Notes: generated from the letters alone by a model not told the origin. A stretch of DNA of 64,000 nt from Spirochaetia bacterium (GCA_963677925.2 CAXXYH010000004.1:1152001-1216000); one strand, 5' to 3'; shown: positions 1-54,684, counted from the first letter of the stretch. Translations and numbers: made by a program.

Positions 1-75
1 GCATCGTCGCTATACGCTCCTCGGGCGCGCCACATACGGCTTCGCCGTACGTCACATAACCCCGGGACGTTAGAC
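1..75 (+). repeat. attC site 0 (family A, left-truncated)
   Basis: ...CCACATACGGCTTCGCCGTACGTCACATAACCCCGGGAC-GTTAGAC (core 69-75); near-identical to 792-882. Confidence 0.9.
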
Positions 76-128
76 GAAATCACGAACCTAAGAGAAAGAG
101 GATGCTTGCCATCCTTGGCAAGCAAAGA

Positions 129-161
129 TTGACAAATTTATGTAATTACTATATAATTACA
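129..161 (+). promoter_or_regulatory. sigma70 promoter with palindromic TA operator (mazEF cassette)
   Basis: TTGACA(129-134)-N17-TATAAT(152-157); TGTAATTA-ctata-TAATTACA palindrome 141-161. Confidence 0.85.
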
Positions 162-176
162 ATAAAGAGGTGTATT

Positions 177-425
177 ATGTTAGTTTCAGTGGTTCCTATA
201 GGCAATTCAAAAGGAATACGAATTCCGAAGAGCATTTTGCAACAGTTAAATATTGAAGAAAAAGTTGAATTAGAAGTGCATAATACAGAAATACTGATTA
301 GACCAATAAAGAAAAAGCCAAGGGAAGGATGGTCCGAAGAGTTTATGAAGATGCATCAAAATGGGGATGATTCATTACTTTTAGACAATTTGACTGAACA
401 GGGTGATTTTGAATGGGAATGGTAA
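177..425 (+). CDS. mazE: AbrB/MazE family antitoxin
   Basis: IGNSKGIRIPK AbrB motif; C-terminal EWEW typical of PemI/MazE; start moved to ATG 177 after GAGG. Confidence 0.88.
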   Translation: MLVSVVPIGNSKGIRIPKSILQQLNIEEKVELEVHNTEILIRPIKKKPREGWSEEFMKMHQNGDDSLLLDNLTEQGDFEWEW

Positions 426-742
426 TTCATCAATATGAGGTATATTTAATAAACTTAGATCCAACAGTTGGCCATGAAATAAAAAAGACAAGACCTTGTT
501 TAGTGATTTCACCAAATGAAATGAATGAAACAATCCAGACTATTATTATCGCTCCAATGACAACAAAATCACATACATATCCTACTCGTGTAGCTGTTAA
601 GTTTCAAAATAAAGATGGATGGATTGTTTTAGATCAATTAAGAACTGTTGATAGGAAGAGATTAATTAAAAAGATTGGTAAAATAAATAGAAAAGAAGTA
701 GATCTCGTCAAGAATGTGCTACAGGAAATGTTAATAGATTAA
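413..742 (+). CDS. mazF: PemK/MazF family endoribonuclease toxin
   Basis: LDPTVGHEIKKTRPCLVIS and DQLRTVDRKRL motifs; overlaps the antitoxin (start may be 419). Confidence 0.92.
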   Translation: MGMVIHQYEVYLINLDPTVGHEIKKTRPCLVISPNEMNETIQTIIIAPMTTKSHTYPTRVAVKFQNKDGWIVLDQLRTVDRKRLIKKIGKINRKEVDLVKNVLQEMLID

Positions 743-791
743 AGCCAAACAACATCCATGTTGCTTGGCTTTGAAGAAGGTTCGTGACATC

Positions 792-882
792 GTCTAACAA
801 GGGTTATTCGCTCGTCACTACGCTCCTCGGGCTGCGCCACATACGGCTTCGCCGTACGTCACATAACCCCGGAACGTTATCC
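792..882 (+). repeat. attC site 1 (family A)
   Basis: GTCTAAC(792-798)...GTTATCC(876-882); inner AGGGTTAT/ATAACCCC boxes. Confidence 0.92.
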
Positions 883-938
883 GAAATATTGTGGCTTGAA
901 GAAACTCGCCTTCCTTGGCTCGTTAGAAAGAATTAAGA

Positions 939-972
939 TTGATAAAAATTAAAAAGTGTTGTACAATGTACA
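939..972 (+). promoter_or_regulatory. sigma70 promoter with tandem TGTACA operator (vapC-phd cassette)
   Basis: TTGATA(939-944)-N17-TACAAT(962-967); TGTACA at 960-965 and 967-972, the known YefM/Axe-type operator core. Confidence 0.75.
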
Positions 973-973
973 T

Positions 974-1366
974 ATGAGCATATTGGTAGATGCAAACATA
1001 TATTTAGCAGTAATTCTCGATGAGCCGGAAAAAAGCAAAATTATTGGATTAACTCAGGAAGATGATCTGATATCACCGGTTGTTTTACCTTTCGAAGTGG
1101 GAAACGCTCTATCTGCAATGTATAAAAGAAATAGATTAGATAAAAGTCAAATAATTGATTGTTATTCAATATTTCAGAAAATACCAGTGCGTTTGATTGA
1201 TGTTAATATTCAAAACTCATTAGTAATAGCAGCAGATTATGGAATATATGCCTACGATGCGTATTATTTGGAGATAGCAAAACGATACAAATGCAGTTTG
1301 TTGAGTTTGGATAATAGAATGAAAGAAGTGGCTAATGATTTAGGAGTTCACTTATTGGAGGTCTGA
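974..1366 (+). CDS. vapC: PIN-domain VapC toxin (upstream of its antitoxin)
   Basis: ILVDAN, EVGNAL, YAYDAYYL and LSLD PIN motifs; ATG 974 preferred. Confidence 0.88.
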   Translation: MSILVDANIYLAVILDEPEKSKIIGLTQEDDLISPVVLPFEVGNALSAMYKRNRLDKSQIIDCYSIFQKIPVRLIDVNIQNSLVIAADYGIYAYDAYYLEIAKRYKCSLLSLDNRMKEVANDLGVHLLEV

Positions 1367-1591
1367 ATGAGAGTTTTTAATTATTCAGAAGCAAGGCAGA
1401 ATTTCGCTTCAATATTGAATATGGCAGCAGAAGAAGATGTCATAATAGCAAAGAAGGATGGAAGCAGATTTAAGATTGTACCGCTTACTAAAAATGAAAG
1501 CAAATCACCATTTGATGTTCCAGGAATTAAAAGTAAAGTTACAACCAAAGAAATTCTTGATGTAATTAGAGAAACTCGAGAGTTATCGTAG
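1367..1591 (+). CDS. Phd/YefM family antitoxin
   Basis: YSEARQNFASIL...DVII N-terminal Phd motif; GGAGG RBS. Confidence 0.85.
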   Translation: MRVFNYSEARQNFASILNMAAEEDVIIAKKDGSRFKIVPLTKNESKSPFDVPGIKSKVTTKEILDVIRETRELS

Positions 1592-1643
1592 AGAAGAAAG
1601 CCGTAATTACGTCCTGTAATTACGGCTTAAGCCACAATACTTC

Positions 1644-1725
1644 AGATAACAAGGGTTACACGCTCCGGCCATTCGGCCTACGCCCAAATTGCTGCGCAAC
1701 TTCGCTTAACCCTGGAACGTTAGCT
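1644..1725 (+). repeat. attC site 2 (hybrid A/B)
   Basis: AGATAAC(1644-1650)...GTTAGCT(1719-1725); AGGGTTA/TAACCCT boxes. Confidence 0.88.
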
Positions 1726-1799
1726 GAAATGCAACCGCTAAGAGAAAGACGCCCGGACCTCCGGTCGACGGGCGATCATGAAGAGAAAGAATATAAAAA

Positions 1800-1828
1800 T
1801 TGACATGATATATATCAAGGTATATACT
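1800..1828 (+). promoter_or_regulatory. sigma70 promoter with VapBC-type palindromic operators
   Basis: TTGACA(1800-1805)-N17-TATACT(1823-1828); TGATATATATCA 1806-1817 and GTATATAC 1820-1827. Confidence 0.8.
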
Positions 1829-1846
1829 TAAAATAGAGGTGGGTAT

Positions 1847-2077
1847 ATGCAAACGGCAAAAATTTTTCAAAATGGAAGATCTCAAGCTATTAGGATACCG
1901 AAAGAATATCAGTTTAAAGGTGATGAAGTATACATTCAAAAGCATGGCGATGCTGTACTGTTGATTCCGCATGAAAAAGCTTGGGAAGTCTTTATGGAAG
2001 GCATAAATGAGTTCACAGAAGATTTTATGAAAGATGGAAGAGAACAAGGCGAAGTACAAGAGAGAGAAGCATTTTAA
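1847..2077 (+). CDS. vapB: VapB antitoxin (AbrB-type)
   Basis: TAKIFQNGRSQAIRIPKEY signature. Confidence 0.92.
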   Translation: MQTAKIFQNGRSQAIRIPKEYQFKGDEVYIQKHGDAVLLIPHEKAWEVFMEGINEFTEDFMKDGREQGEVQEREAF

Positions 2078-2475
2078 TGTATTTACTTGATACTAATATT
2101 TGTATATTCGCGATTAAACGTAAGCCTTCAAAAGTATTTGAATTAATAAAAGAAAGATCTAAAGAAGGAATATATATTTCATCATTAACAGTAGCAGAGT
2201 TGGAATTTGGTGTTCAAAATAGTGAACGAGAAGAGCAAAACAGAATAGCTCTTCTAAAATTTCTTTCTGTATTCAATATTTTAAATTTTGATGATTCAGA
2301 CGCAATAGATTATGGGAGGATGAAAGTAGATTTAAGAAAGAATGGTAATGTAATTGGACCAATTGATATGTTATTGGCTGCGCAAGCTTTGAATAAAGAT
2401 ATGATATTTGTAACCAATAATGTAAAAGAATTTGAAAGAGTAAAAGGTTTAAGAATAGAAGATTGGAGTGTTTAG
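2077..2475 (+). CDS. vapC: VapC PIN toxin
   Basis: YLLDTNICI, IGPIDMLLAAQA and VTNNVKEFERV; TAATG coupling to vapB. Confidence 0.93.
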   Translation: MYLLDTNICIFAIKRKPSKVFELIKERSKEGIYISSLTVAELEFGVQNSEREEQNRIALLKFLSVFNILNFDDSDAIDYGRMKVDLRKNGNVIGPIDMLLAAQALNKDMIFVTNNVKEFERVKGLRIEDWSV

Positions 2476-2529
2476 AAGAATCCAGCCCTAACTCCGTCGA
2501 ACGGTCTGGATGAGGAGCGGTGGCACTAC

Positions 2530-2623
2530 AGCTAACAGGGACTATGTGCTCGTCGCTTTATGCTCCTCGGCCTTCGCCACATACGGCTTACGCCGTACGT
2601 CACATAACCCCGGGACGTTATGT
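2530..2623 (+). repeat. attC site 3 (family A)
   Basis: AGCTAAC(2530-2536)...GTTATGT(2617-2623). Confidence 0.92.
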
Positions 2624-2686
2624 TCAATGCCCGGCTTAAGAGCTTAATAGTCCTCGGCAATCCGTGGCCTCGGGAAGGAAGAAGAA

Positions 2687-3676
2687 ATGAAAAGTAATGC
2701 AGAAAAAACAATACAATCTCTTAGAAAGATTAATGATTTCCCTTTTTATATCGCAAAATATTATGGTGACTATAAAATTACTGAATATAAGAATGGAGCG
2801 ATAAAAAGTCCAAATGATATAGTTCCTTTTTTTAAAAATCTTTTTTCAGAATTAGGACAACCAACAGAGTTAAGTTTTCCAAAGCCTCCTGAAATCAATT
2901 TAGGTTGTAGTGCTTTTTTCTGCCGCGATAAAAAAAACTCTGCTATCATTGGTAAAAACAATGACTGGAAAAGAGATCCAATTCTTTTACTCAAGACAAC
3001 ACCAGATGAAGGCTATACATCATTTTCTATGGTTAATTTGAGTTTCTGTGATTTATTTCAATTAGGTTCTTTTGATCACAATCTATTATTATCACCTTAT
3101 GTTCCACTCGATGGTATGAATGAGATTGGGCTTGTTGTAACAACATTGGCTGTTCATGAAGGTTCAGAATATCCGCTAAAATCAAATCATTTATCAGTTG
3201 GTGATTTTAATTTAGTAAGAATTATCCTTGATACATGTGCCAATATAGATGAAGCAATCGTTATAATTGATCAGTATAATATAATGCAAACAGGTCCGCT
3301 TCCAATACATCTTCTTATCGCTGATAAAAGTGACTCTTGTATAGTTGAATTCTTTGATGGAAAGAAACATATAAAAAGAGATCAAGATTTAAACTACTTA
3401 ACAAATTTTCTTAAACTGAAAACTTCTGATTATGAGAATCAAAGGAATCTTTGTAATCGGTATCAGACTATAGAAAGACGGTTTAAGCAAGATAAAATTA
3501 TCATTAAAATTCATGAAGCAAAGAAAATTTTTTCAGAAGTATCAGTTTGTACTGGAAATTTTCAAATTCCAAGTACCATCTATTCAACAATATATTGTCC
3601 GAATGATTTAAGTCTGAAAATAAAGATAGGTGATGAATCAAAATATTACTCGTTATCGCTACAGGAGAGTAAATGA
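2687..3676 (+). CDS. Ntn-hydrolase (linear amide C-N hydrolase / C45-like)
   Basis: Internal nucleophile motif GCSAF, GKNNDW, PLDGMNEIGL, HLLIAD, LTNF. Confidence 0.8.
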   Translation: MKSNAEKTIQSLRKINDFPFYIAKYYGDYKITEYKNGAIKSPNDIVPFFKNLFSELGQPTELSFPKPPEINLGCSAFFCRDKKNSAIIGKNNDWKRDPILLLKTTPDEGYTSFSMVNLSFCDLFQLGSFDHNLLLSPYVPLDGMNEIGLVVTTLAVHEGSEYPLKSNHLSVGDFNLVRIILDTCANIDEAIVIIDQYNIMQTGPLPIHLLIADKSDSCIVEFFDGKKHIKRDQDLNYLTNFLKLKTSDYENQRNLCNRYQTIERRFKQDKIIIKIHEAKKIFSEVSVCTGNFQIPSTIYSTIYCPNDLSLKIKIGDESKYYSLSLQESK

Positions 3677-4239
3677 CAGATATTGAAATCCTGGGGCTAA
3701 ATAATAGCTTCTCTTTTGAAGAATTAAAGAGAGCTTTCAGACAAAAATCAAAACAATTTCATCCTGATAAAAATCAGGATAACTTGAATAGCCATCTTGC
3801 GATGATTCAATTGAATCAAGCATATTCAAATCTTCAGAAGAAAATCAAAGAAAAGCCTGTTTTGAATAATCGGGACCTATCCATAGATACTGCATATTCA
3901 ATATATAAAGATGGAATCTCAAAGTTTCAGAGTATCCATCCTTCCAAATGGAAATCATATTCTATCGATGGACTTTTTGATCCAAGTGCAATTAACACTC
4001 ATTCTGAAACACCTTTAATTTTACAATCTTTAATAACACTGATGGCAGAAGCTTATCATCGTTTTTCAACTGTAGTGAACGAACATGAAAATAGTTCTTG
4101 GTATTCAGATTCAATAACGAAAATGAAAGAAATTGAGAAAATGACACAACGGTATATCAAGATAAAGGAATCATATGAAATAGAAATGAATGATAGAAAG
4201 CGGATCAGAAAATCTGTCCATGGACTTTCTGAAAATTGA
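3673..4239 (+). CDS. J-domain (DnaJ-like) protein
   Basis: ILGL...ELKRAFRQKSKQFHPDKN...LNQAY J-domain with HPD; ATGA overlap with the upstream gene. Confidence 0.85.
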   Translation: MTDIEILGLNNSFSFEELKRAFRQKSKQFHPDKNQDNLNSHLAMIQLNQAYSNLQKKIKEKPVLNNRDLSIDTAYSIYKDGISKFQSIHPSKWKSYSIDGLFDPSAINTHSETPLILQSLITLMAEAYHRFSTVVNEHENSSWYSDSITKMKEIEKMTQRYIKIKESYEIEMNDRKRIRKSVHGLSEN

Positions 4240-4261
4240 AACCAAACCTGCCGGGCAATAA

Positions 4262-4408
4262 ACATAACAGCGAATATGCGGTTGCGCTTCGCTCCACCCA
4301 AATTGCTTCTTTGATAAAATCTGAAAAAAGTATGTTATACTTTTTCCAGATTTTATCAAGCCCCGCAAGGGGGCTGAAGCAACTTCGCATATTCGCGAAA
4401 CGTTATAT
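4262..4408 (+). repeat. attC site 4 (family B, long, 147 bp)
   Basis: ACATAAC(4262-4268) GCGAATATGCG...CGCATATTCGC GTTATAT(4402-4408). Confidence 0.88.
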
Positions 4409-4557
4409 GATATAATTGAGCAGGCGGCAAATAGACACTCGCCGTCCTGGCTTGTGTGTAAGAGAATATAAATGATTTAACAATTAATAAATGATTAAAA
4501 ATTTCAAATAGAATATAAAATCATTTAGGTTTATTTTTAGGAGAAGAAAGAAGAAGA

Positions 4558-5043
4558 ATGAAAAAATATCATTTAAATAATCGTCCAAACCGTGAATTAA
4601 CAAATGAGATTGATATTACAGCAATTTTAGAAAGTGGGAAATATGCTGTAATTGCTATGTGTCGTGATAATGAACCATATATTGTTACTTTAAGTTATGG
4701 TTATGATTCATTAAAAAAATGTTTATATTTTCATTGTTCACCTATTGGGCTAAAGCTCGATTTTATAAAATATAATGCGAAAGTTTGTGCGACAGTAATT
4801 GAAGATGGTGGATATATAGTTGATGAATGTGGTCATAATTATAGAACAGCAGTTTTCTGGGGTAATATAAATATAGTTTTAGATTTAGATGAAAAAAAGC
4901 ATGGAATGAAAATGATACTAAATCATCTTGAGGAAAATCCATCAATAATTAAGGATAAGTTATTAAAGTCAGGCGACTTTTATTCAAAGATGGAAATATT
5001 AAGGCTTGATATTTCTCAGATTCATGGGAAAGCAGGAAGATGA
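4558..5043 (+). CDS. Pyridoxamine 5'-phosphate oxidase-like / NimA-like flavin-binding protein
   Basis: EPYIVTLSYGY, LYFHC...GLKLD, YRTAVFWG motifs. Confidence 0.8.
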   Translation: MKKYHLNNRPNRELTNEIDITAILESGKYAVIAMCRDNEPYIVTLSYGYDSLKKCLYFHCSPIGLKLDFIKYNAKVCATVIEDGGYIVDECGHNYRTAVFWGNINIVLDLDEKKHGMKMILNHLEENPSIIKDKLLKSGDFYSKMEILRLDISQIHGKAGR

Positions 5044-5116
5044 TTTTAAGAGAAGTCGAAAGGCCCAAAAAACGTCCATATATTTGGGGGGGTAAATGAT
5101 AGTGCTCAAGTACGTC

Positions 5117-5211
5117 ATATAACAGGGGCTATGTGCTTCATCGCTGTGCGCTCCTCGGGCTGCGCCACATACGGCTTGCGCCGTACGTCACATATCCCCG
5201 TGAAGTTAGAT
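5117..5211 (+). repeat. attC site 5 (family A)
   Basis: ATATAAC(5117-5123)...GTTAGAT(5205-5211). Confidence 0.9.
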
Positions 5212-5229
5212 TCAATATGTCAATAAACA

Positions 5230-5880
5230 ATGAAAAAGGAGATTCCTATGACACAATTTGGTAAACCAACAGGGAAAATGGGCAAAATACTGGCAAAAGG
5301 ATTTGCTTTTGGTCATAAGGATTTTTATAAGAACACAGCATTCATTGCTGGATTAACAGAATCTGATGAATTGCTGGAAATCGGGTTTGGTTCCGGAATG
5401 TTTATTAATAAATATGCAAAGCATATAAAACATATTGCCGGATTAGATATTTCACCGGATATGGTTGAATTAGCAAAAGAGATTAACAGTAAATTGCTTG
5501 ATGAAAAAAAGCTAGAACTTATAGAAGGAAACATTTTATCATTACCTTGGAATGATAATTCTTTTTCAGTCATCATTAGTATAGAATCATTTTTCTTTTG
5601 GGAAAATGTCGAAAAAGCCGTGTTAGAAATTTATCGTGTTCTAAAACCGGGAGGAAGGATTGTTATAGAAATGGCATTTAATTTGGAAGACGGTCAAGAT
5701 CATACAAAAGATATAAAGAAAATTGGATTTCAACTTTATGAGGAGAAGAATATCCGGAATCTTTTGAACGAATCAGGTTTTATTGATGTTTCTTTCAATT
5801 ATTATAAAGCATTTTGGATTCCTATTAAGGGATATATTGTCACAAAAGGTATGATCTTTAAGGCTTGTAAGCCCCATTGA
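5230..5880 (+). CDS. Class I SAM-dependent methyltransferase
   Basis: LLEIGFGSG, GLDIS, RVLKPGG; start may be 5248. Confidence 0.88.
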   Translation: MKKEIPMTQFGKPTGKMGKILAKGFAFGHKDFYKNTAFIAGLTESDELLEIGFGSGMFINKYAKHIKHIAGLDISPDMVELAKEINSKLLDEKKLELIEGNILSLPWNDNSFSVIISIESFFFWENVEKAVLEIYRVLKPGGRIVIEMAFNLEDGQDHTKDIKKIGFQLYEEKNIRNLLNESGFIDVSFNYYKAFWIPIKGYIVTKGMIFKACKPH

Positions 5881-5888
5881 CATACTAC

Positions 5889-5967
5889 AGCTAACAGGGG
5901 CTATACGCTCCTCGGGCTGCGCCACATTCGGCTGCGCCGAACGGCACATAATCCCGAAACGTTATGT
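5889..5967 (+). repeat. attC site 6 (family A, short)
   Basis: AGCTAAC(5889-5895)...GTTATGT(5961-5967). Confidence 0.88.
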
Positions 5968-5995
5968 GTCATCTGTTGAAATATCTGGAGGTATG

Positions 5996-6472
5996 ATGAA
6001 TATAAATAAGGGAGTTGAATTAAGAAAAGAAGGCAAACTAATAGAATCAAATAACTTCTTTATAAAACTTGCAATTGAATACCCTAATGATGCCATAGTT
6101 CAGTATCAATGTGCATGGAGCTTTGATGTTTTAGAGAAAGAGACAGAAGCGATCTATTATTATGAGAAAGCAATAGAACTTGGTCTGCAAGATAATGATC
6201 TGAAAGAAGCATTGCTAGGTTTGGGTAGTACTTACCGGTCAATTGGTGAATATGAGAAATCAAAACAGACATTTGAGAAGGGAATCTCATTATTCAATGA
6301 TAATTCCTTAAAGGTTTTTTATGCGATGACCTTATACAATTATGGAGAATATTCCAGGTCTATGGATTTATTACTCAATATTATTGCGAACACAACCCAA
6401 GATAAATCTATATTAACATATAAAAAGGCAATAAAGTTTTATTCAGGGAGATTGGATGAGGTATTTAACTAA
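5996..6472 (+). CDS. Tetratricopeptide repeat protein
   Basis: EAIYYYEKAI, ALLGLGSTYRSIGEYEKS; start after GGAGG (5993/5996). Confidence 0.85.
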   Translation: MNINKGVELRKEGKLIESNNFFIKLAIEYPNDAIVQYQCAWSFDVLEKETEAIYYYEKAIELGLQDNDLKEALLGLGSTYRSIGEYEKSKQTFEKGISLFNDNSLKVFYAMTLYNYGEYSRSMDLLLNIIANTTQDKSILTYKKAIKFYSGRLDEVFN

Positions 6473-6484
6473 GGAAAGAATGAC

Positions 6485-6560
6485 ACATAACAGCGAATAT
6501 ACGGTTCCGCTTTGATTCACCCAAACTGGCCGTTGACCAGCTTCGCATATTCGCGGGATG
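6485..6560 (+). repeat. attC site 7 (family B), GTT core site deleted
   Basis: ACATAAC GCGAATAT...CATATTCGCGGGA is followed directly by TGGCAATAAGCAC, with no GTT. Confidence 0.8.
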
Positions 6561-6629
6561 GCAATAAGCACTATATTTATTGAGAAAAGCTGAATCTGCC
6601 ATCCATGGCAGATAAAAGGATTTAAATGC

Positions 6630-7454
6630 ATGATTTATGAATTGGACAAAGCAGATTATTATAGGGCCGAGAATCTTTTTACCAAGTTGAAAACAAACAC
6701 AGCAATTGAGTCAATTTTTAACCATAAAAACGAAGCTCGTCTGTTTGTTGATAATCCAAGTAAACCGAAAAGCATCTTCATTCTTAATTCATGGGCTTAC
6801 TACTATCTGGCTGGTGAATCCGAAAATGAAAAATTTAATTCTTCATTAGTTAAGTTTCTTGAAAATGATTTTTTTCCAGAATGTCTCAAAACAAATTCTA
6901 ATACAGTTTTCGCATTTTATCCCGATAGTAACCAGTGGTGTAAAAAATCTGAAGAAATATTTTCTCATTTGAATATTGAAAAATCGGGAAAAACCTATTT
7001 TAACTATGATGAAAAACGTTTCAATAAAAACTGGAGAGAAAATATTCCTGAAGGTTTCAGTGTAAAAAGAATCAGCTCGGAAATTATTAATTCAATTGAA
7101 AATAATGAAGAATTTGTAAATTACATAAAATTTGCCTGGACAACAACTGATCAGTATTTTGACAAAGGATTGGGATACTGTGCTATTGATGCAAATGATT
7201 TTGCAACAATTTGTATTTCTGTTTTTGCTTCTGAAAATGAGCGAGAAGTGGGGATTAAAACATTTCCTGACTTTCAAAGAAAGGGATTGGCATATGTTAC
7301 AGCCTGTGCCTATATTGAAGAATGTTTAAAAAATAATTTTGTTCCTGTCTGGTCATGTTTTAGCGAAAATAAAGTATCAATAAGATTAGCAGAAAAACTT
7401 GGCTACAAAATCGAAGCCTCGCATCCGATTTATTTTGCGAAGATTGGTGATTGA
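6630..7454 (+). CDS. GNAT family N-acetyltransferase
   Basis: EVGIKTFPDFQRKGLA and NKVSIRLAEKLGY. Confidence 0.88.
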   Translation: MIYELDKADYYRAENLFTKLKTNTAIESIFNHKNEARLFVDNPSKPKSIFILNSWAYYYLAGESENEKFNSSLVKFLENDFFPECLKTNSNTVFAFYPDSNQWCKKSEEIFSHLNIEKSGKTYFNYDEKRFNKNWRENIPEGFSVKRISSEIINSIENNEEFVNYIKFAWTTTDQYFDKGLGYCAIDANDFATICISVFASENEREVGIKTFPDFQRKGLAYVTACAYIEECLKNNFVPVWSCFSENKVSIRLAEKLGYKIEASHPIYFAKIGD

Positions 7455-7514
7455 AGAAAACGTATCGCTGGGCATCCATGCCTCTCTACAGGCTTGCATT
7501 CCTGTGCTTGCTGC

Positions 7515-7663
7515 CTATAACAGAGAATATACACTGCGGCTCGCCTTGGCATTCTGCAAATCGCCTTTGACAAATACCTGATGAAATGTGATACAATTTC
7601 CCATATATTTATTACCCCTATAGGGGTGCCAGGCGACTTTCGTATATTCGAGGAACGTTAGGC
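7515..7663 (+). repeat. attC site 8 (family B, long, 149 bp)
   Basis: CTATAAC(7515-7521) GAATATAC...GTATATTC GTTAGGC(7657-7663). Confidence 0.85.
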
Positions 7664-7682
7664 CATAATTTATGGAGAAAAA

Positions 7683-8141
7683 ATGGATGTACATATAAGT
7701 AAATTAAACTCCAATACGGATGTTCCTATGGATTTATTGCTACTTGCCGATCCATCGGAAGAATTAGTTAAAAGTTATCTTAAAAAGGGAACATGCTATA
7801 TCGCTGAATTTGATGAAGAAACAGTTGGCGTTATTCTTATTGTGGAGACAAAACCACATACTGTTGAAGTTATGAATCTTGCGGTTAAAGAAGAACTGCA
7901 TAATAACGGTATAGGCAAAAAACTCCTCTTGCACGTTATTGAAGAAATAAAAAAAAGTGATACAAAAACAATTGAAATCGGAACTGGAAATCCCGGAGTA
8001 GTACAAATGTTATTGTATCAAAAGTGTGGTTTCCGTATCGTAGGGATAGATTTTGATTTTTTTAGAAGGACGCATCCTGAACCGATATATGAGAATGGAA
8101 TAGAATGCCGTGATATGATAAGAATGAGAATTGAGTTATAG
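7683..8141 (+). CDS. GNAT family N-acetyltransferase
   Basis: LLLLADPS, NLAVKEELHNNGIGKKL, LYQKCGFRI. Confidence 0.9.
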   Translation: MDVHISKLNSNTDVPMDLLLLADPSEELVKSYLKKGTCYIAEFDEETVGVILIVETKPHTVEVMNLAVKEELHNNGIGKKLLLHVIEEIKKSDTKTIEIGTGNPGVVQMLLYQKCGFRIVGIDFDFFRRTHPEPIYENGIECRDMIRMRIEL

Positions 8142-8175
8142 TATGGAGGGTCTTAACGGTTTTATCCATAAACAG

Positions 8176-8257
8176 CCCTAACAGCGAATATGCGGTTCTA
8201 CATGGCTTCAACCAAATTAGCCTGCGGCCAACTTCGCATATTCGCGGGACGTAATCT
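8176..8257 (+). repeat. attC site 9 (family B), core mutated to GTA
   Basis: CCCTAAC(8176-8182) GCGAATATGCG...CGCATATTCGC GTAATCT(8251-8257). Confidence 0.8.
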
Positions 8258-8541
8258 GAAATGCCACCGCGAAGATGTAGCTGCCCGGGTCTCCGGCCGG
8301 CGGGTGATTCTGCAGAGAAAGAATTAAAAACTGTCACGATATATCAAGGTCTATACTTTAAGTAGAGCTGAGTATATGTAAAACTGCAAAAATATTTCAG
8401 AATGGAAGATCTCAAGCCATTCAAATCCCGATAGAATATCAGTTTAAAGGTTATGAAGTATACATTAAAAAACATGGTGATGCTGTATTGCTGATTCCAC
8501 ATGAAAAAGTATGTGAATTAATAAAAGAAAGATCGAAAGAA
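8251..8541 (+). pseudogene. Degenerate, internally deleted copy of the vapBC cassette at 1719-2536
   Basis: Leader, promoter and vapB 5' part align with 1719-1979 (ATG followed by TAA at 8376-8381), then jump to vapC sequence 2135-2166. Confidence 0.88.
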
Positions 8542-8544
8542 TAT

Positions 8545-8865
8545 AATCCGGTTTATGATGGTCCTCAATTTAAAAATATTAATATCAAACCTTTCAGAAT
8601 AAATGAGTCTGCATCTGAAGAACTCTTTAAGATTAGATATTTTTTCAATCAAAATAAAAATACATTTTACTTTCTTTTCAAGAAAAAAGAGTTAATTGGT
8701 GCAACTCTATATCTGTGAAATTATATTCAATCGCTCTGCATTAACCGAAAGTACCAAAGAATGGGATATGGTGCTAAGCTAACAAAATTCGTTGTAAATA
8801 AAATACTATCAGATGGTCATGACAAGGTTACATTAAAAGTTGTAATTGAAAATATTCATAATTAA
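8545..8865 (+). pseudogene. GNAT acetyltransferase remnant
   Basis: After in-frame TGA 8716-8718 the frame continues NYIQSLCINRKYQRMGYGAKL...VTLKV (GNAT motif A). Confidence 0.7.
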
Positions 8866-8923
8866 TGTTATTAATTATAAGTTTGTCTTTTGTGACAGGC
8901 TAATTCAAAAGTAGGAGAAACGT

Positions 8924-9391
8924 ATGAGTTTCAAAAGCAAAAATGAATTAGGTCTATCTGACGTATGTTGTAAGAATTTTTTAAATGATTTAGAAACCGA
9001 AAATGTTTGGAGTTTTTTTCAAAGATTTGAAAAAGATTCAGACCCCACCGATTTAACTGTAGCCGAAGAGTCTTATTTTGATAATTTTCTGTTTTGTGAT
9101 CCAAGTAGTGCTAATTCAATTAAGAAAGAAGATTTCTTGAAATTTTTACCAATTATGACAACTAAATATAAAGAGTTGGGGTACAAAGATAAAAAGTTAA
9201 AAGGACTAGATGTCATCAAATTGAATGATTATTATCTATTAGTCAATGTTACCTGGAATATGATATTTGTAAAGAATGATTTATTAAATGAATATGATGA
9301 TATTAAAGCTACTTATATTTTAAAAAAAGAAAAAAATGGGCATAAAATTATATTTCATTTGGATCATCAAAAATTAAGTGAGATTGTCTAA
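8924..9391 (+). CDS. NTF2/SnoaL-like hypothetical protein
   Basis: AGGAG RBS; YLLVNVTW...ATYILKK...KIIFHLDH NTF2-like C-terminus. Confidence 0.6.
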   Translation: MSFKSKNELGLSDVCCKNFLNDLETENVWSFFQRFEKDSDPTDLTVAEESYFDNFLFCDPSSANSIKKEDFLKFLPIMTTKYKELGYKDKKLKGLDVIKLNDYYLLVNVTWNMIFVKNDLLNEYDDIKATYILKKEKNGHKIIFHLDHQKLSEIV

Positions 9392-9477
9392 AAAAAGATA
9401 AGAAATGAAGATAAATCCGTGACTCTTAATAATTAAAATTTCCTCAATCTTTTAAAGATAAAAAGTGAGAAAAATTC

Positions 9478-9520
9478 TTGCAAATCATGTAATAACATAG
9501 TAAGCTATATGTAATTACAT
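9478..9520 (+). promoter_or_regulatory. sigma70-like promoter with two ATGTAAT(T/A)ACAT operators
   Basis: TTGCAA(9478-9483)-N17-TAAGCT(9501-9506); palindromes at 9487-9498 and 9509-9520. Confidence 0.65.
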
Positions 9521-9538
9521 CAATATTTAGGGGCCTCA

Positions 9539-9952
9539 ATGCGTATACCAATAATTAATATCGGAAATTCTAAGGGGATAAGGATTCCTCAGGCAATTCT
9601 TAAACAGGTTAGCTTTAGTGGTGAGATTGACTTAGAAATTGATAATGGAAAAATTGTTTTAAACAGATCCAATAGTCCCGATATAGTACCGGATTTTGAT
9701 TCAATACCGGAAATGGATGATATTACTATACAAAGAATGTTAAGAAAAATAACCGGTATGGATCTGATCACTTCCTTAATAGATGCAGATCAAAGTATTA
9801 AAGAAGCTGTCTATAGAAATCTATCAGAACGCGTTAGAAATTATGTGGTTTTAAAAGTAGAAAAGTTGGAGAAGGGAGATGCTAAAGATTTAATTATTGA
9901 GCAAAGCCGTAATGCTATAAGTGAAGCCTTTATGGATTTAAAAAATGAATAA
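9539..9952 (+). CDS. AbrB/MazE DNA-binding domain fused to a FliG C-terminal-like domain
   Basis: N-term IGNSKGIRIPQ; C-term FDSIPEMDDITIQRMLRKI...DL...IKEAVYRNLSER resembles FliG_C (FEDI..LDDRSIQ..LRE...RNMSKR). Confidence 0.78.
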   Translation: MRIPIINIGNSKGIRIPQAILKQVSFSGEIDLEIDNGKIVLNRSNSPDIVPDFDSIPEMDDITIQRMLRKITGMDLITSLIDADQSIKEAVYRNLSERVRNYVVLKVEKLEKGDAKDLIIEQSRNAISEAFMDLKNE

Positions 9953-9968
9953 AGTAAAGGAGGCTTTA

Positions 9969-10148
9969 ATGGAGAATTTGAATAAGATAATGGAAATGAG
10001 TGACGGGCAAATTCAGGAATCTTTCGACTTATGCAAGGTCTGCAATTGAAAATTCTGTTAATAAATTTAAAAAAGCAGAAATAAAGATTTAGAGATACAA
10101 ACGAGTATTCAATTAATTAAAAGTTTAATTGAAAAAAAGGCAATTGCT
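9969..10148 (+). pseudogene. Broken stand-alone FliG_C-like gene
   Basis: GGAGG RBS; MENLNKIMEMSDGQIQ / RNLSTYARSAIENSVNKFKKAEIK / DLEIQTSIQLIKSLI read across two frame changes and align with the upstream FliG_C domain. Confidence 0.65.
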
Positions 10149-10505
10149 ATGGATATTTTTAAAGCCATAAAAAATGGAAATATAGAATTTATTCGCAATT
10201 ACATTAAAAGTGGAAATGATTTAAGCATAAGAGATTAATATGAAATGACTCCACTGATTGTAGCAACTGATGAAGGTAGATTAGAGCTTGTTAAATTGCT
10301 GATAGAAGCCAAGGCTGATATAAATGATCAAGACACAGTCGGGCAGACTGCTTTGCATTTAGCTGCAGGCAGAAATTACACTGAAATCATAAAACTTTTA
10401 ATAAAAGCAAAAGCAAGAATAGATATTAAAGCTGTTAATCGTTTGACAGCATTTGAATATGCTACGGAAAATGGAATGAAAGAAGCTGCACTGCTTTTAA
10501 AGTAG
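10149..10505 (+). pseudogene. Ankyrin repeat protein with internal stop
   Basis: MDIFKAIKNGNIEFIRNYIKSGNDLSIRD*(TAA 10236-10238)YEMTPLIVA...GQTALHLAA. Confidence 0.75.
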
Positions 10506-10662
10506 GTAGAGAAAATGAGAAATATGTGTATTCATTCCTTGGAACGGTTTATAATATGAGTCGGGATAAATTGATATCAGGCACTATTTAGAATTGTTAA
10601 AAAAAGAGGAATCCATAGCCGTATAGAAAGCTCTTGTTGTATATGCGGTTTTGAGTTATCTA

Positions 10663-11454
10663 ATGAAGATTGAAAACTTAATAAATTCATATGATTCAAC
10701 AGCTGAAGTTTATGATGAAGAAACAAGTACTTTTCATCATAAAATTTGTGAATTTCTCACAATAAAAAACATGCTTTTAGAATTACCTGAAGATACAAAT
10801 ATAAAAATATTAGATGCTGGCGGCGGCACGGGTAAATATTCAATTATTCTGAATGATTATGGATACTCTCCTGAACTAATTGATATAAGCAGTAAAAGTG
10901 TCGAGGTATTTAATAAGAAAATGGAACAAAGAGGACTGGCTCTCAAGTCGTTTGTATGCAATGCAGAATCAACTCCTTTTAAAAGAGAACGGTTTGATTT
11001 TATTATGATGAACGGCGGGGTGATTGGTTATACTCTTAATCCTTCAATGTTGCTCAAAGAAGTTCATAGAATTTTAAAAGCAGATGGTAAGCTCTGGTTT
11101 GATTTTCCTAACACATTAGGCTGGGCAATTGAAGTACAAGATCCGGGTTTGAAAATTGAATTATCTAAGGCTGATGATAAAATGATTCAGATGCCTGACT
11201 GGGATTATCCAGTAAGACTGTTTAGCTTGAGGAAGATTGAAAAGATGCTGAATGATGCAGGATTTGAGATAAAATCAAAATACGGATTAATTTTTTTGTC
11301 TAATTCCCTTCCTTTGAAAGAAAGATATTCAAAAAAATATAATCTTGAGTTGCTTGAAAAATATAAAATAGCCGAGCTGGAATTAAGCAGAAAAAAAGAT
11401 TGCGTAAGGGCCTCTTGGGCGTGTTCCATTTGTGCAAAAAAAATATTCCATTGA
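10663..11454 (+). CDS. Class I SAM-dependent methyltransferase
   Basis: ILDAGGGTG, IDIS, EVHRILK. Confidence 0.85.
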   Translation: MKIENLINSYDSTAEVYDEETSTFHHKICEFLTIKNMLLELPEDTNIKILDAGGGTGKYSIILNDYGYSPELIDISSKSVEVFNKKMEQRGLALKSFVCNAESTPFKRERFDFIMMNGGVIGYTLNPSMLLKEVHRILKADGKLWFDFPNTLGWAIEVQDPGLKIELSKADDKMIQMPDWDYPVRLFSLRKIEKMLNDAGFEIKSKYGLIFLSNSLPLKERYSKKYNLELLEKYKIAELELSRKKDCVRASWACSICAKKIFH

Positions 11455-11486
11455 ATCACCTTGCGTTTCAGTAAAAGAGAGGTCTT

Positions 11487-11969
11487 ATGAGTAATGCAGT
11501 TTTAATTTTTTTTGCAATAGCAATAATAATGATTGTTGGTTTTTATAAAAATAAAAAATCAAAAAGCATCAGTACCCATGAAAGATTAGAGGATGAAGCG
11601 CTTGATTATAATCAGGAATTTATTGAAAATTCAGAGGGTAAAGATATTATCCCGTTTGTTCGAATTTTTGCACAATCAGATAAACTGATGCTCCGATCTC
11701 TGCTTTCTTCAGAAGGTGTATGCACATACATTACAAATGAAAACACAAACAATCTGTTTCCAGGCAGAATGGTACAGGGCTATACTGATACTGTAATATA
11801 TATTTTCAAAGAGGATCAGGCTATGGCTCGACCAATAATTGAAGACTATATTTTGAATCTTATTGAAAATATAAATCCGGAAATTAAAACAAAGGCAATA
11901 GATTTGGTTGCGGCAATGGCTTTGCTGCCTACCAGTATGAATCAGATATTACCGGAGTTTATTGATTGA
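11487..11969 (+). CDS. Membrane-anchored hypothetical protein (DUF2007-like)
   Basis: N-terminal TM helix; MLRSLLSSEGV...ENTNNLFP...IYIFKEDQAMARPII. Confidence 0.55.
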   Translation: MSNAVLIFFAIAIIMIVGFYKNKKSKSISTHERLEDEALDYNQEFIENSEGKDIIPFVRIFAQSDKLMLRSLLSSEGVCTYITNENTNNLFPGRMVQGYTDTVIYIFKEDQAMARPIIEDYILNLIENINPEIKTKAIDLVAAMALLPTSMNQILPEFID

Positions 11970-12826
11970 GTACTGAAATTTATTATTTTTCCGGTACAGG
12001 AAACTGTCTGTACACAGCCAGAATGATAGGGACAGAAAATAATTTTAAAGTAATCTCAATACCTCAGTTCCTGAAGAGCTCTGATAATACTGTACAGGCC
12101 GAACGGATAATTATTGTCTTTCCGTCATATCTGGCTGCTGCTTGCGGAGTTCCTCTGATTGTAGAAAGGTTCGTTAGGGCAATTGAGGATATTGAACTGA
12201 AAAAGATAACCGCTGTCTGTACATGCGGGGGGTATGAAATAGTAAACGCCAATCCTTCATTGATAAAGCTGAAAAAAATAATTGAATCGGCTGGGGGCAG
12301 GTTGGAAACAAGGTTTTCACTGCGGCTTCCGATGAATAACCTTGATTATGAACATATCCCGGTTCCTATAGAAAAAAGAACCGAGCATATATTAACGCAA
12401 GCCGAGTCAAAATTACAAAAAATCAGTAAACAAATTGGAAGCAGCACAGGGGGGCAATTTGAAATTTCGAATACATTATTCAATTTTATAATACAACCCC
12501 TTTTTAAAATAATGAAAAATGCTACATTAAACAGCTTGAGAGGATATGCAGAAGAGGTTAACCCTTCTTTAAGCTGTAATGAATTATTACCTCTGACAGA
12601 TAGAAGAATTAAAGTTAAGGAAAATTGTAACGGCTGTGGAGTCTGTGCAAGGATATGTCCTGTAGAAAATATTGAATTAATAAATGGAAGTCCCCAATTC
12701 ATGCACAAGTGTGAAGTGTGTTTTGCCTGTGATGAATGGTGTCCGCAGGGCGCTATACAGCACTGGGGCAGATCCCGCGGCGTTAAATACCATCATCCAA
12801 AGATAAAAATAAACGATATGTTTTAG
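11966..12826 (+). CDS. EFR1-family flavodoxin/4Fe-4S ferredoxin
   Basis: YYFSGTGN; CNGCGVCARICP; CEVCFACDEWCP. Confidence 0.9.
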   Translation: MSTEIYYFSGTGNCLYTARMIGTENNFKVISIPQFLKSSDNTVQAERIIIVFPSYLAAACGVPLIVERFVRAIEDIELKKITAVCTCGGYEIVNANPSLIKLKKIIESAGGRLETRFSLRLPMNNLDYEHIPVPIEKRTEHILTQAESKLQKISKQIGSSTGGQFEISNTLFNFIIQPLFKIMKNATLNSLRGYAEEVNPSLSCNELLPLTDRRIKVKENCNGCGVCARICPVENIELINGSPQFMHKCEVCFACDEWCPQGAIQHWGRSRGVKYHHPKIKINDMF

Positions 12827-12872
12827 TTTCCTGCGAAGCAGGAACTTAGTATTATTCAATCAGGAGTGAATT

Positions 12873-13166
12873 ATGGGAATGCATTGTGTTGTCTTTCATT
12901 ATCCAGGACCAAAATGGCAGGATGAATATGATTTTAGAAATCAGCCTGGAATTATGGAACATGTGGAGCATTATTCAAAACTGATGGAGTCAGGGAAACT
13001 TCGAATGGGTGGACCCTTTTCTGATGCAGATTCCGGAGGGATGATGATTGCAGAAGATGGTGTTTCCATGGAAGAAATTGAAAAGTTTGCCTCCGACGAT
13101 CCAGCTGTAAAGAAAGGCCTGCTTACTTTTAAAGTAAGATTGTGGTATGTTCCTATGAGTAAATGA
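12873..13166 (+). CDS. YciI family protein
   Basis: EHVEH...GKLRMGGPF...DDPAVKKG. Confidence 0.85.
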   Translation: MGMHCVVFHYPGPKWQDEYDFRNQPGIMEHVEHYSKLMESGKLRMGGPFSDADSGGMMIAEDGVSMEEIEKFASDDPAVKKGLLTFKVRLWYVPMSK

Positions 13167-13906
13167 AAAGAATAATTATCGCCGGTCTTCTGACTGTATT
13201 TGTTCTCGTAATAGCTGCAGCTGCTTCATTTCAGTACAGCAGGTCTTGGCAGAATGCCCTGTTTGTACACCCATTGTACCGGCTTCCGGGAGATGAAAAA
13301 GTTGTGGCACTTACCTTTGATGACGGGCCGTCTGAGAAAAGAACGCCGGCTCTTTTAGCTATGCTTGAAGAAAATAATGTTAAAGCTTCTTTTTTTATGC
13401 TTGGCGAAAATATTGAAAGATATCCTGATATCGCCCGGCAGGTGTATGAAAAGGGACATCTCATAGGAAATCACTCTTATGACCATCCGCGAATGATTTT
13501 TAAATCTTTCAGTTTTGTCAGAAATCAGATAACCAGGACCGACGGTCTTATTAAATCAGCAGGCCAGATTAATATTCAGTATTTTCGGCCGCCATATTCT
13601 TCAAAATATATTGTTCTGCCGCTGGTTCTTAAAGCAATGGATAAAACTCTTGTGACCGGTTCCTATGATCCGCCCTCTGAATATATCAGACCGTTTGATG
13701 CGGAAAAAGTTGCAGCCGAGGTTATTGAAAATGCAGAACCAGGTGCTGTGATCTATCTTCATGACGGCAAAGATTCTGATGTGCAAGAGTTTATTGAATC
13801 CGTTAGACTAATCATAAGCGGTCTTCGAGCTGAAGGTTATAGATTTGTAAGGCTTGATTATCAGAATGAGCATTTAAAAGAAAGCTTTGCACTTGAGATA
13901 CACTAA
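13163..13906 (+). CDS. Polysaccharide deacetylase (NodB/CE4)
   Basis: ALTFDDGP, GNHSYDHP, FRPPY, YLHDG. Confidence 0.92.
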   Translation: MKRIIIAGLLTVFVLVIAAAASFQYSRSWQNALFVHPLYRLPGDEKVVALTFDDGPSEKRTPALLAMLEENNVKASFFMLGENIERYPDIARQVYEKGHLIGNHSYDHPRMIFKSFSFVRNQITRTDGLIKSAGQINIQYFRPPYSSKYIVLPLVLKAMDKTLVTGSYDPPSEYIRPFDAEKVAAEVIENAEPGAVIYLHDGKDSDVQEFIESVRLIISGLRAEGYRFVRLDYQNEHLKESFALEIH

Positions 13907-54565: not shown

Positions 54566-54684
54566 AATTACCTTCTTTTATAATGATGATTAACCTTAAA
54601 ACCATGGATAAGGTTTGTCAAGAATTGATTTTAAAGCGGTTAGGATAGAGTTAATATTACCCTTTGTGATATTATCTGCTGTAT

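Follow-up and report, generated by a model that had tools for sequence, protein, structure and literature searches.

What are the short hairpins with a TCC loop that lie close to both ends of the gene cassettes in a chromosomal integron of a Spirochaetia bacterium, and which of the two DNA strands carries the signal? The standard integron model describes a cassette as an open reading frame (ORF) with an attC site. The window analysed here, the whole stretch of 64,000 nucleotides at G000:C4:1152001-1216000 (G000 being the Spirochaetia genome under study), opens with the distal portion of a chromosomal integron cassette array (window positions 1-13000), and a first-pass annotation of its sequence had listed 13 hairpins there, described as lying on one strand with variable stems around a conserved loop. 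The letters given for all 13 stretches are present. Taken as a class, the hairpins are a real, strand-specific family at cassette ends in the integron cassette pool of one spirochaete family.

The window from position 1 to ~13000 is AT-rich (G+C 31-39%, against 43% for the contig), and its ORFs, all on the strand presented here as the top strand, alternate with G+C-rich imperfect palindromes of the form RYYYAAC...GTTRRRY. The array as a whole spans C4:1139100 to ~1165000 on the + strand, directly downstream of a co-oriented tyrosine recombinase gene (G000:C4:1138043-1139116; L003:1258-2328). The recombinase matches the integron-integrase model in two pieces only (positions 2-180 and 236-315, with 97 and 99 bits) and falls below the model's cut-off of 265 bits. 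A second array, on C3 (~88-128 kb, minus strand), is divergent from a full integron integrase (IntI, 383 bits). ORFs separated by attC sites and lying beside an integron integrase, the mark of integron cassettes, are present in this genome, and the two arrays together make up 1.3% of the genome. A covariance model of attC (R1), built from seven palindromes of the window, gave 10 matches in window 1-8300 and many more upstream on the contig and in relatives; it detects few sites of the C3 array, which uses other attC types.

The whole of G000 was scanned for hairpins with TCC in a loop of 3-6 nt. Twelve with at least nine pairs were found in the two arrays, every one in the orientation of the array and none in the opposite orientation, and 65 elsewhere in the genome, on both strands. 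As the arrays account for 1.3% of the genome, ~0.5 hairpins would be expected in them, which makes the enrichment ~24-fold; this contrast is conservative because at least one of the hairpins counted as outside, C3:54072, adjoins an attC in a third small cassette cluster. The scan had been proposed by the first-pass annotation as a check, and it refutes a generic, randomly oriented repetitive extragenic palindrome (REP), which would be dispersed between genes in both orientations.

The position of the hairpins relative to attC was determined in 81 kb of array DNA from G000, its genus relative G001 and the relative G007, with 56 attC matches and 23 TCC-loop hairpins (at least seven pairs, at most one mismatch). 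Ten of the 23 end 15-34 nt upstream of the next attC and nine begin 27-44 nt downstream of the previous one, while four lie elsewhere, at least one of these preceding an attC unseen by the model. The hairpins flank attC and are not themselves attC sites, as judged by the R''/R' and L''/L' boxes and by the model: none of the 23 lies inside any of the 56 matches. They had also been placed just inside terminal repeats of the cassettes, which is borne out: in six of eight cassettes the first 15 nt beyond the 7-nt R box match the complement of the cassette's own last 15 nt at 10-14 positions, whereas non-self cassette ends match at a mean of 4.5 and a maximum of 7 positions (n=64), and the sequences either side of a single attC of the array at 2-7 positions only. 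Since each repeat matches the other end of its own cassette, crossover must occur at the canonical G|TT, all sequence downstream of it moving with the next cassette, and in the excised circle the attC stem would be ~20 bp long. Such cassette-specific terminal inverted repeats are seen at 69-88 with 779-798, with equivalents in cassettes 2-6.

Each of the 13 listed stretches was folded as single-stranded DNA (ssDNA) against 200 shuffles. Four gave strong folds with no shuffle as good (103-124, 741-772, 1598-1628 and 6594-6613) and two gave moderate ones (1750-1774, z -2.4, 5/200; 4435-4457, z -2.2, 6/200), while for the remaining seven (908-919, 2656-2669, 8284-8306, 4205-4232, 5064-5088, 7471-7482 and 7496-7507) between 11 and 102 of the 200 shuffles were as good. 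The first-pass annotation was therefore right about the class and over-counted its members, seven of its listings folding at shuffle level. Some of the weak stretches are plausibly decayed copies; 5064-5088, for instance, resembles intact hairpins cccaaagtacGTCCTgtactttggg in L139 and in relatives. The stretch 908-919 fits the 5'-type motif GCCNTCCNTGGC, although alone it is not significant. The stretch at 8284-8306 had rightly been called decayed, but it is not an independent hairpin, being a copy of the 1750-1774 box within a decayed vapBC cassette. The cassette grammar that had been put forward, IR-hairpin-gene-hairpin-IR-attC (IR, inverted repeat), is real in ~6-7 of 10 cassettes and optional, as three of the 10 in window 1-8300, those of the methyltransferase, the TPR protein and the second GNAT, are free of hairpins at both ends.

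Among the strong folds, 103-124 and 6594-6613 both begin 27 nt past an attC model match (6485-6566 in the latter case), and 103-124, which reads GCC-AAGGAT-GGC on the bottom strand, recurs as the same hairpin in the C3 array. Hairpin 741-772 begins at a stop codon and ends 19 nt upstream of attC; 1598-1628, which reads C-AGGAC-G on the bottom strand, ends 15 nt upstream of attC and is identical in G001.

Variation of stem and loop was followed in a larger set of related arrays, consisting of regions of family relatives, 112 stretches from GTDB genomes and 95 from metagenomes (217 sources, 577 kb), all fetched and oriented via a conserved 25-nt box (box5). These hold 78 distinct TCC-loop hairpins with at least eight Watson-Crick pairs, 61 of them with at most one non-pair. 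Their stems are very diverse (gagaacttgtaca, ttaagctacgcca, aatcaatctgcc and tgcttgcca are examples), compensated changes separate related stems (cccaaaaTac/gtAtttt against cccaaaaGac/gtCtttt), and within a cassette the stems at the two ends are unrelated, as at 103-124 and 741-772. The loops are TCCA, GTCCT, GTCCAT, TCCT, TCCG, TCCC and TTCCGT, and the two closing pairs are ca/tg in 34 hairpins, cc/gg in 12 and ac/gt in 11. The fixed TCC that had been taken for the conserved loop is thus the centre of a wider unit, C-N-TCC-(N)-T-G, which matches a known motif on the other strand (see below) and fits 58 of the 61 hairpins; in G000 it is present in all 12 array hairpins, as against 10 of the 65 outside. 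Which base pairs adjoin the loop depends on the cassette end, these being GCC(A)/(T)GGC at the 5' and TAC(A)/(T)GTA at the 3' end. The restriction to one strand likewise withstood an opposite-loop control, in which the 61 TCC-loop hairpins faced 13 with a top-strand GGA loop, all short and AT-rich and none with more than nine pairs. A variable stem around a fixed loop, as originally described, therefore characterizes the class, with stems that covary, but not 1750-1774, which is one copy of the near-invariant box. Three further ideas about the loop, a GGATG (FokI-type) site, tetraloop stability and a primase site, were dropped, each misfitting some of the loop variants.

Box5 itself follows the same distribution. 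All 15 of its loose matches in G000 lie within the two arrays in array orientation, and it occurs in seven of 41 genomes including G000, namely in 6 of the 10 others of the family and in none of 30 from other families of the class. It forms part of a leader that reads, in order, GTTAYNNN(C/G)AAT, 8-10 cassette-specific nt, AAGAGRAAGA, the box and CGAAGA, and that is carried also by the first cassette after the recombinase gene. Of 331 copies, 244 are identical, although retrieval of the loci by exact match to the central 21 nt leaves variation within that core under-represented. Pair 1-25 covaries over the 331 copies (mostly C-G, A-T in 22 and T-A in one), with one-sided changes too; at pair 8-16 the consensus has A.C, six copies have G-C and one, the copy in the window, has A-T; and the predicted bulge at position 18 varies freely (16 copies). 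A conserved 3' element, box3, which the first-pass annotation had overlooked, has 10 pattern matches in G000, all within the arrays, in array orientation and preceding attC; its fold is uncertain.

Stems that vary and covary around a fixed loop, on one strand, within the arrays and at set distances from attC together point to a sequence-specific reader of the single-stranded form, and in this respect the protein-read single-strand signal suggested by the first-pass annotation is supported.

The identity of a candidate reader is suggested by the complementary strand, on which the unit C-N-TCC-(N)-T-G reads CA(N)GGANG. The optimal RsmE/CsrA target has been published as 5'-A/U-CANGGANG-U/A-3' (PMC6849547), and systematic evolution of ligands by exponential enrichment (SELEX) gave the CsrA consensus RUACARGGAUGU, in which ACA and GGA do not vary and GGA occupies the loop of a hairpin (PMC4347634). 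The core of a CsrA/RsmA hairpin, GGA in a loop within CA(N)GGANG closed by C-G, is present on the bottom strand of 58 of the 61 array hairpins, and the 3'-type hairpins, which read (R)UACA-NGGA-UGU on that strand, match the SELEX consensus at 11-12 of 12 positions. At the level of sequence, a CsrA site on the opposite strand is the only known match of the hairpin loop. The sequence RTACANGGATGT occurs 12 times in the genome, five times on the bottom strand of the arrays and never on their top strand, and most of the seven copies outside the arrays are apparently within ORFs, as judged by eye from three-frame translations. Likewise, hairpins with a C-ANGGAN-G loop and six or more further pairs number 12 in the genome, and nine of these lie on the arrays' bottom strand. 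Two exact 12-mers CCGGACCTCCGG, at C3:696927 and C4:1172794, were set aside as chance occurrences in what, by eye, is apparently ordinary non-array sequence.

A csrA gene is present (PF02599, 90.8 bits, C4:2339507-2339662). Moreover, the three best flagellin-gene leaders, upstream of G000:C4 2599057, 2348802 and 2347727, contain the hairpins GGGAC-AAGGAT-GTCCC, GGGC-AAGGAT-GCCC and GAAGGC-AAGGGAT-GCCTTC, and each has a second site, CA(A/T)GGAGG, over the Shine-Dalgarno sequence, 3' of the hairpin. A two-site layout of this kind is that of CsrA control of flagellin in Bacillus subtilis (hag). The leader loop AAGGAT closed by C-G is also that of the bottom strand of 103-124.

Which strand folds was judged from the mismatches. 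The 61 hairpins comprise 648 stem positions with only 10 non-pairs, 98% being Watson-Crick and almost none wobble pairs, and the transition-type mismatches are four A.C and no G.T on the top strand, that is, G.T on the bottom strand. Both the G-to-A change in the G001 copy of 103-124 and the A.C in 741-772, which is retained in G001 where the loop is TCCG, give a wobble pair on the bottom strand. Box5 pair 8-16, read on the bottom strand, is G.U, G-C or A-U, a normal covarying pair, whereas its main top-strand state cannot pair. These patterns are few in number and mutually consistent, and they point to the bottom strand as the one that folds; attC recombination, too, takes place on the bottom strand. 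When the bottom strand of 1592-1780 is folded as DNA (z -5.6), three domains result, one each for box5, attC and the 3' hairpin.

We tentatively favour the possibility that the hairpins are cassette-borne, strand-specific structured signals with a CsrA-type reader acting on bottom-strand (antisense) RNA; in this reading bottom-strand transcription, CsrA as the reader and the consequence of its binding are all inferred. The AT-rich cassettes would give rise to antisense transcripts in which every cassette border bears a CsrA hairpin of high affinity, so that attC has one on either side, and CsrA, or a protein of the same specificity, would bind these hairpins. Binding could limit, end or destabilize the antisense RNA and so insulate the cassettes, or else the array would serve as a reservoir of CsrA sites. 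More speculatively, the cassettes of this spirochaete family may bear high-affinity CsrA hairpins at both ends, opposite their genes, so that the array amounts to a large bank of CsrA sites, employed for antisense silencing at borders, as a CsrA sink, or for control of the folded recombination strand; a master regulator that acts after transcription would in this way be tied to integron biology. Many copies of a GGA stem-loop in one locus are likewise found in sponge RNAs of the CsrB/RsmZ type.

Several observations weigh against a CsrA-type reader of antisense RNA. Every cassette ORF here has the motif on its antisense strand, whereas known CsrA sites are usually found in a sense 5' leader or a dedicated small RNA, and the hairpins are placed relative to the recombination site and not to a start codon. 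No origin for RNA of the bottom strand came to light: when promoter-like sites were scored in 239 distinct 130-nt segments downstream of box5, on the bottom strand there was no enrichment (9% of segments reached 10/12 consensus matches, against 7% of shuffles), whereas the top strand was enriched (17% against 7%). The stems, 8-14 bp long and near-perfect, exceed what a CsrA site needs (3-6 bp in known sites) and resemble the outcome of a DNA constraint. The loop of box5 is CGGAG, with no A ahead of GGA; the consensus used derives from proteobacterial proteins; the flagellin leaders are taken as CsrA sites by analogy with Bacillus hag and Borrelia flaB; and the strand evidence from wobble pairs rests on few events. 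Taken together, the antisense placement, the lack of bottom-strand promoter enrichment and the long perfect stems make a role at the DNA level the main rival. A divergent small RNA near box5 was also considered and rejected, bottom-strand promoter enrichment adjoining the box being absent from the segments examined.

Such a DNA-level role, which we hold to be doubtful, would have the hairpins fold when the bottom strand is single-stranded, as attC does, so that the 3' hairpin, an outer stem, attC, a second outer stem and the 5' hairpin, with the terminal repeats supplying the outer stems, would make up an extended recombination site. The hairpins might then aid or regulate the folding of attC, or recruit a factor that binds ssDNA hairpins. 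Their position is tied to attC (19 of 23 at 15-44 nt, none inside), they lie just inside the cassette-specific repeats that would lengthen the attC stem in the excised circle, and being downstream of the crossover point they move with the cassette. The near-absence of wobble pairs is unusual for an RNA helix and is what DNA pairing predicts, the mismatch patterns indicate the recombined strand, and the three-domain fold of 1592-1780 is in keeping with an extended site. However, no integron component is generally known to read hairpin loops, and no candidate reader gene was found beside the recombinases, the 164-aa ORF upstream having no Pfam match. The cassettes without hairpins keep both attC and terminal repeats, so that a cassette can exist without hairpins, and a purely structural role leaves the conservation of six of eight bases in the loop motif unexplained.

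It is unlikely that the hairpins act instead as RNA elements of the top strand, marking or protecting the ends of cassette mRNAs within a read-through transcript, as an exonuclease barrier or a processing site, or exposing anti-Shine-Dalgarno-like loops (AUCCUU, ACCUCC) that pair with GGA sequences such as an upstream purine tract. The 3' hairpins do begin on a stop codon or no more than a few nt from one, the ORFs are all on the top strand and top-strand promoters lie downstream of the 5' elements; a purine tract with GGA (AAGAGGAAGA) precedes box5 in most copies, and an alternative hairpin at 99-115 would pair AGGATG with the loop CATCCT. But in the three cassettes with strong promoter matches the 5' hairpins are upstream of the promoter and hence missing from the cassettes' own transcripts. 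On the top strand, moreover, the 648 stem positions contain no G.U against four A.C, the dominant state of box5 pair 8-16 is an unpaired A.C, and no reader of C-NUCCNU-G loops is known to us.

That the hairpins are intrinsic terminators or insulators, whether for sense read-through or for antisense transcription, is very unlikely. An intrinsic terminator has a G+C-rich stem followed by a U-tract, and the statement of the first-pass annotation that none is present holds on either strand of 45 hairpins, the top-strand tail being 28% T and the bottom-strand tail 41% T against a background of 37%. Under a loose rule just two hairpins, 1598-1628 and 103-124, qualify, both on the minus strand alone, where they are the two best terminator-like sites in 13.5 kb (tails TCTTCTCTAC and TCCTCTTTCT); the top-strand sequence upstream of hairpins is somewhat purine-rich (A+G 0.67 against a background of 0.56). 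This genome, however, uses canonical U-tract terminators, for example after the gene at C4:10263, and termination leaves the fixed loop sequence unexplained. Largely refuted, and scarcely credible, is the proposal of hairpin-dependent mobile-element ends (IS200/IS605-like or REP/RAYT-like) nested in the cassettes, or of a generic repeat: one-strand subterminal hairpins at both ends of a cargo do resemble IS200/IS605 ends, but the stems differ within and between cassettes where those of such elements are conserved, the hairpins are not dispersed (12 in the arrays, with the motif in only 10 of 65 outside), and the 99.6% complete genome has no match to Y1_Tnp (PF01797), nor any to RVT_1, which leaves the HUH (Y1-type) and reverse-transcriptase readers that had been suggested without support.

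Like attC, the hairpins are cassette-borne, strand-specific and conserved in structure, with the bottom strand indicated, and they lie 15-44 nt from it; unlike attC, they lack R and L boxes, do not overlap model matches, are optional, and conserve the sequence of the loop and not the geometry of the stem. REP sequences with RAYT, and the IS200/IS605 hairpins, share with them the form of short imperfect palindromes read on one strand, but are dispersed, have conserved stems and depend on a Y1 transposase. The single-strand origins (sso) of rolling-circle plasmids are orientation-specific ssDNA hairpins with a conserved loop sequence, as are the array hairpins; they have no sequence likeness to these, and integron cassettes are not known to need priming of the complementary strand. 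The DUF1874 motif is likewise structured and turns up repeatedly, in one intergenic region after the next; an unusual attC-like ssDNA of greater complexity has been discussed as its nature (Weinberg et al., 2017; PMC5737381). Here, in contrast, the hairpins are additional to a canonical attC, and window 1-13500 gave no credible match to any Rfam family, the DUF1874 motif included, at E up to 5.

Many cassettes in the shared pool of this spirochaete family thus add to ORF and attC terminal repeats, a conserved leader and strand-specific hairpins with a selected loop, and these added features imply an extra sequence-specific reader. The literature surveyed, which was covered in part, holds no description of integron-cassette hairpins of this sort or of a link between CsrA and integrons. 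If the reader were CsrA, a global RNA regulator would for the first time be linked to integrons, and the systematic placement of a regulator's sites on the antisense strand would be a rare arrangement. Should it instead act on ssDNA, attC would be part of a larger, multi-hairpin recombination site, with a bearing on cassette folding, excision and first formation. The hairpins hint at a layer of control on integron gene stores that has not been described before, and under either reading the motif is short and sharply defined.

Table 1. Features of the cassette array in the window, with window coordinates and the evidence for each (z and shuffle counts from folding as ssDNA).
Feature	Position	Strand	Evidence
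3' part of attC preceding cassette 1	1..75	+	R' box GTTAGAC at 69-75; model R1 49 bits, clipped at window start
5' terminal inverted repeat of cassette 1 (R' box + 13 nt)	69..88	+	pairs with 779-798; 12/15 beyond R box match own 3' end
5' hairpin, mazEF cassette	103..124	+	9-bp perfect stem, loop TCCT; -10.7 kcal/mol, z -5.0
Promoter-like TTGACA-17-TATAAT	129..157	+	12/12 consensus matches; directly 3' of hairpin 103-124
3' hairpin, mazEF cassette	741..772	+	13 pairs with one A.C mismatch, loop TCCA; -10.9 kcal/mol, z -5.2
3' terminal inverted repeat of cassette 1, with R'' box	779..798	+	end-repeat comparison
attC, cassette 1	792..882	+	R1 86.6 bits
GCC-TTCCTT-GGC, weak 5' motif copy with 3-bp stem	908..919	+	z -0.15, 80/200 shuffles as good
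3' hairpin, PIN/Phd cassette	1598..1628	+	13-bp perfect stem, loop GTCCT; -13.5 kcal/mol, z -8.6
attC, cassette 2	1644..1725	+	R1 66.8 bits
box5, copy of the family-wide 25-nt element (consensus CGCCCGGACCTCCGGCCGACGGGCG)	1750..1774	+	z -2.4; T at position 16 restores an A-T pair
box3, conserved 3' element ATCCAG.CC-T..CTCCG....AC-GGTCTGGAT	2478..2512	+	pattern match; fold of this copy weak, z -1.6
attC, cassette 3	2530..2623	+	86.9 bits
Weak hairpin GGCaA-TCCG-TgGCC	2656..2669	+	z -0.6, 51/200 shuffles as good
Weak hairpin inside end of DnaJ-domain ORF	4205..4232	+	TCC within GTCCATGGAC palindrome; z -1.8, 11/200
Decaying 5' hairpin ACACtcGCC-GTCCT-GGCttGTGT	4435..4457	+	z -2.2, 6/200; begins ~27 nt past attC 4262-4408
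Decayed 3' hairpin of CCCAAA..GTCCA..TTTGGG type	5064..5088	+	z -1.0, 32/200
5' hairpin, GNAT cassette	6594..6613	+	8-bp perfect stem, loop TCCA; -7.7 kcal/mol, z -4.7
Weak motifs GGCA-TCCA-TGCC and GCA-TTCCTG-TGC	7471..7507	+	z -1.5 and -0.1
Decayed box5 copy heading decayed vapBC cassette copy	8284..8306	+	loose pattern; no longer folds, z +0.2

The cargo of the window is typical of integron cassettes and includes toxin-antitoxin pairs. It comprises mazEF, PIN with Phd, a MazE-like protein with PIN, an Ntn-hydrolase with a DnaJ-domain protein, a pyridoxamine-oxidase-like protein, a methyltransferase, a TPR protein and two GNAT acetyltransferases. Promoter-like sites with 10-12 of 12 consensus matches are present in the three toxin-antitoxin cassettes, with the 5' element upstream of each. 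The mazEF cassette, with both hairpins, is found in both arrays of G000 (window 70-875 and G000:C3:125740-126550), its end regions and hairpins matching, and also, with small changes, in G001. The stretch 8251-8720 is a decayed copy of the vapBC cassette at 1719-2536, in which the leader box, the promoter region and remnants of the antitoxin are recognizable.

Apart from the two arrays, a third small cluster of attC-like sites lies at G000:C3 ~53400-56600 on the minus strand and includes the 5'-type TCC hairpin C3:54072; a weak tyrosine-recombinase match was seen at C3:62023. The attC sites at 4262-4408 and 7515-7663 are ~60 nt longer than the others owing to AT-rich loop inserts with promoter-like hexamers, the insert being palindromic at least in 4262-4408. 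In several type-A attC sites the central loop contains an insert of ~330 nt (L139 ~4750-5130, ~10240-10430, ~3600-3900 and ~6100-6400; C3 ~126560-126800), which has its own attC-like palindrome ATTTAAC...GTTAAAT and A/T-rich ends and resembles a small mobile element with attC loops as its target.

Most of the bottom-strand ORFs in the arrays of relatives are either transposase-like genes or spurious reading frames of a repeated cassette that is non-coding. One recurrent cassette lacks a convincing ORF; it starts with GTTATACTCCATCACTTTGGGCAAGG in the relative, lies at L139 ~10400-11540, has many copies in L130 and L131 and is found several times in the arrays of G000 and G001. It could encode an RNA. 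Four copies of an ORF of ~386 aa, opposite to the cassette strand, lie inside the G007 array (L132 and L133; G007:C1:4476001-4516000) and are probably an insertion sequence.

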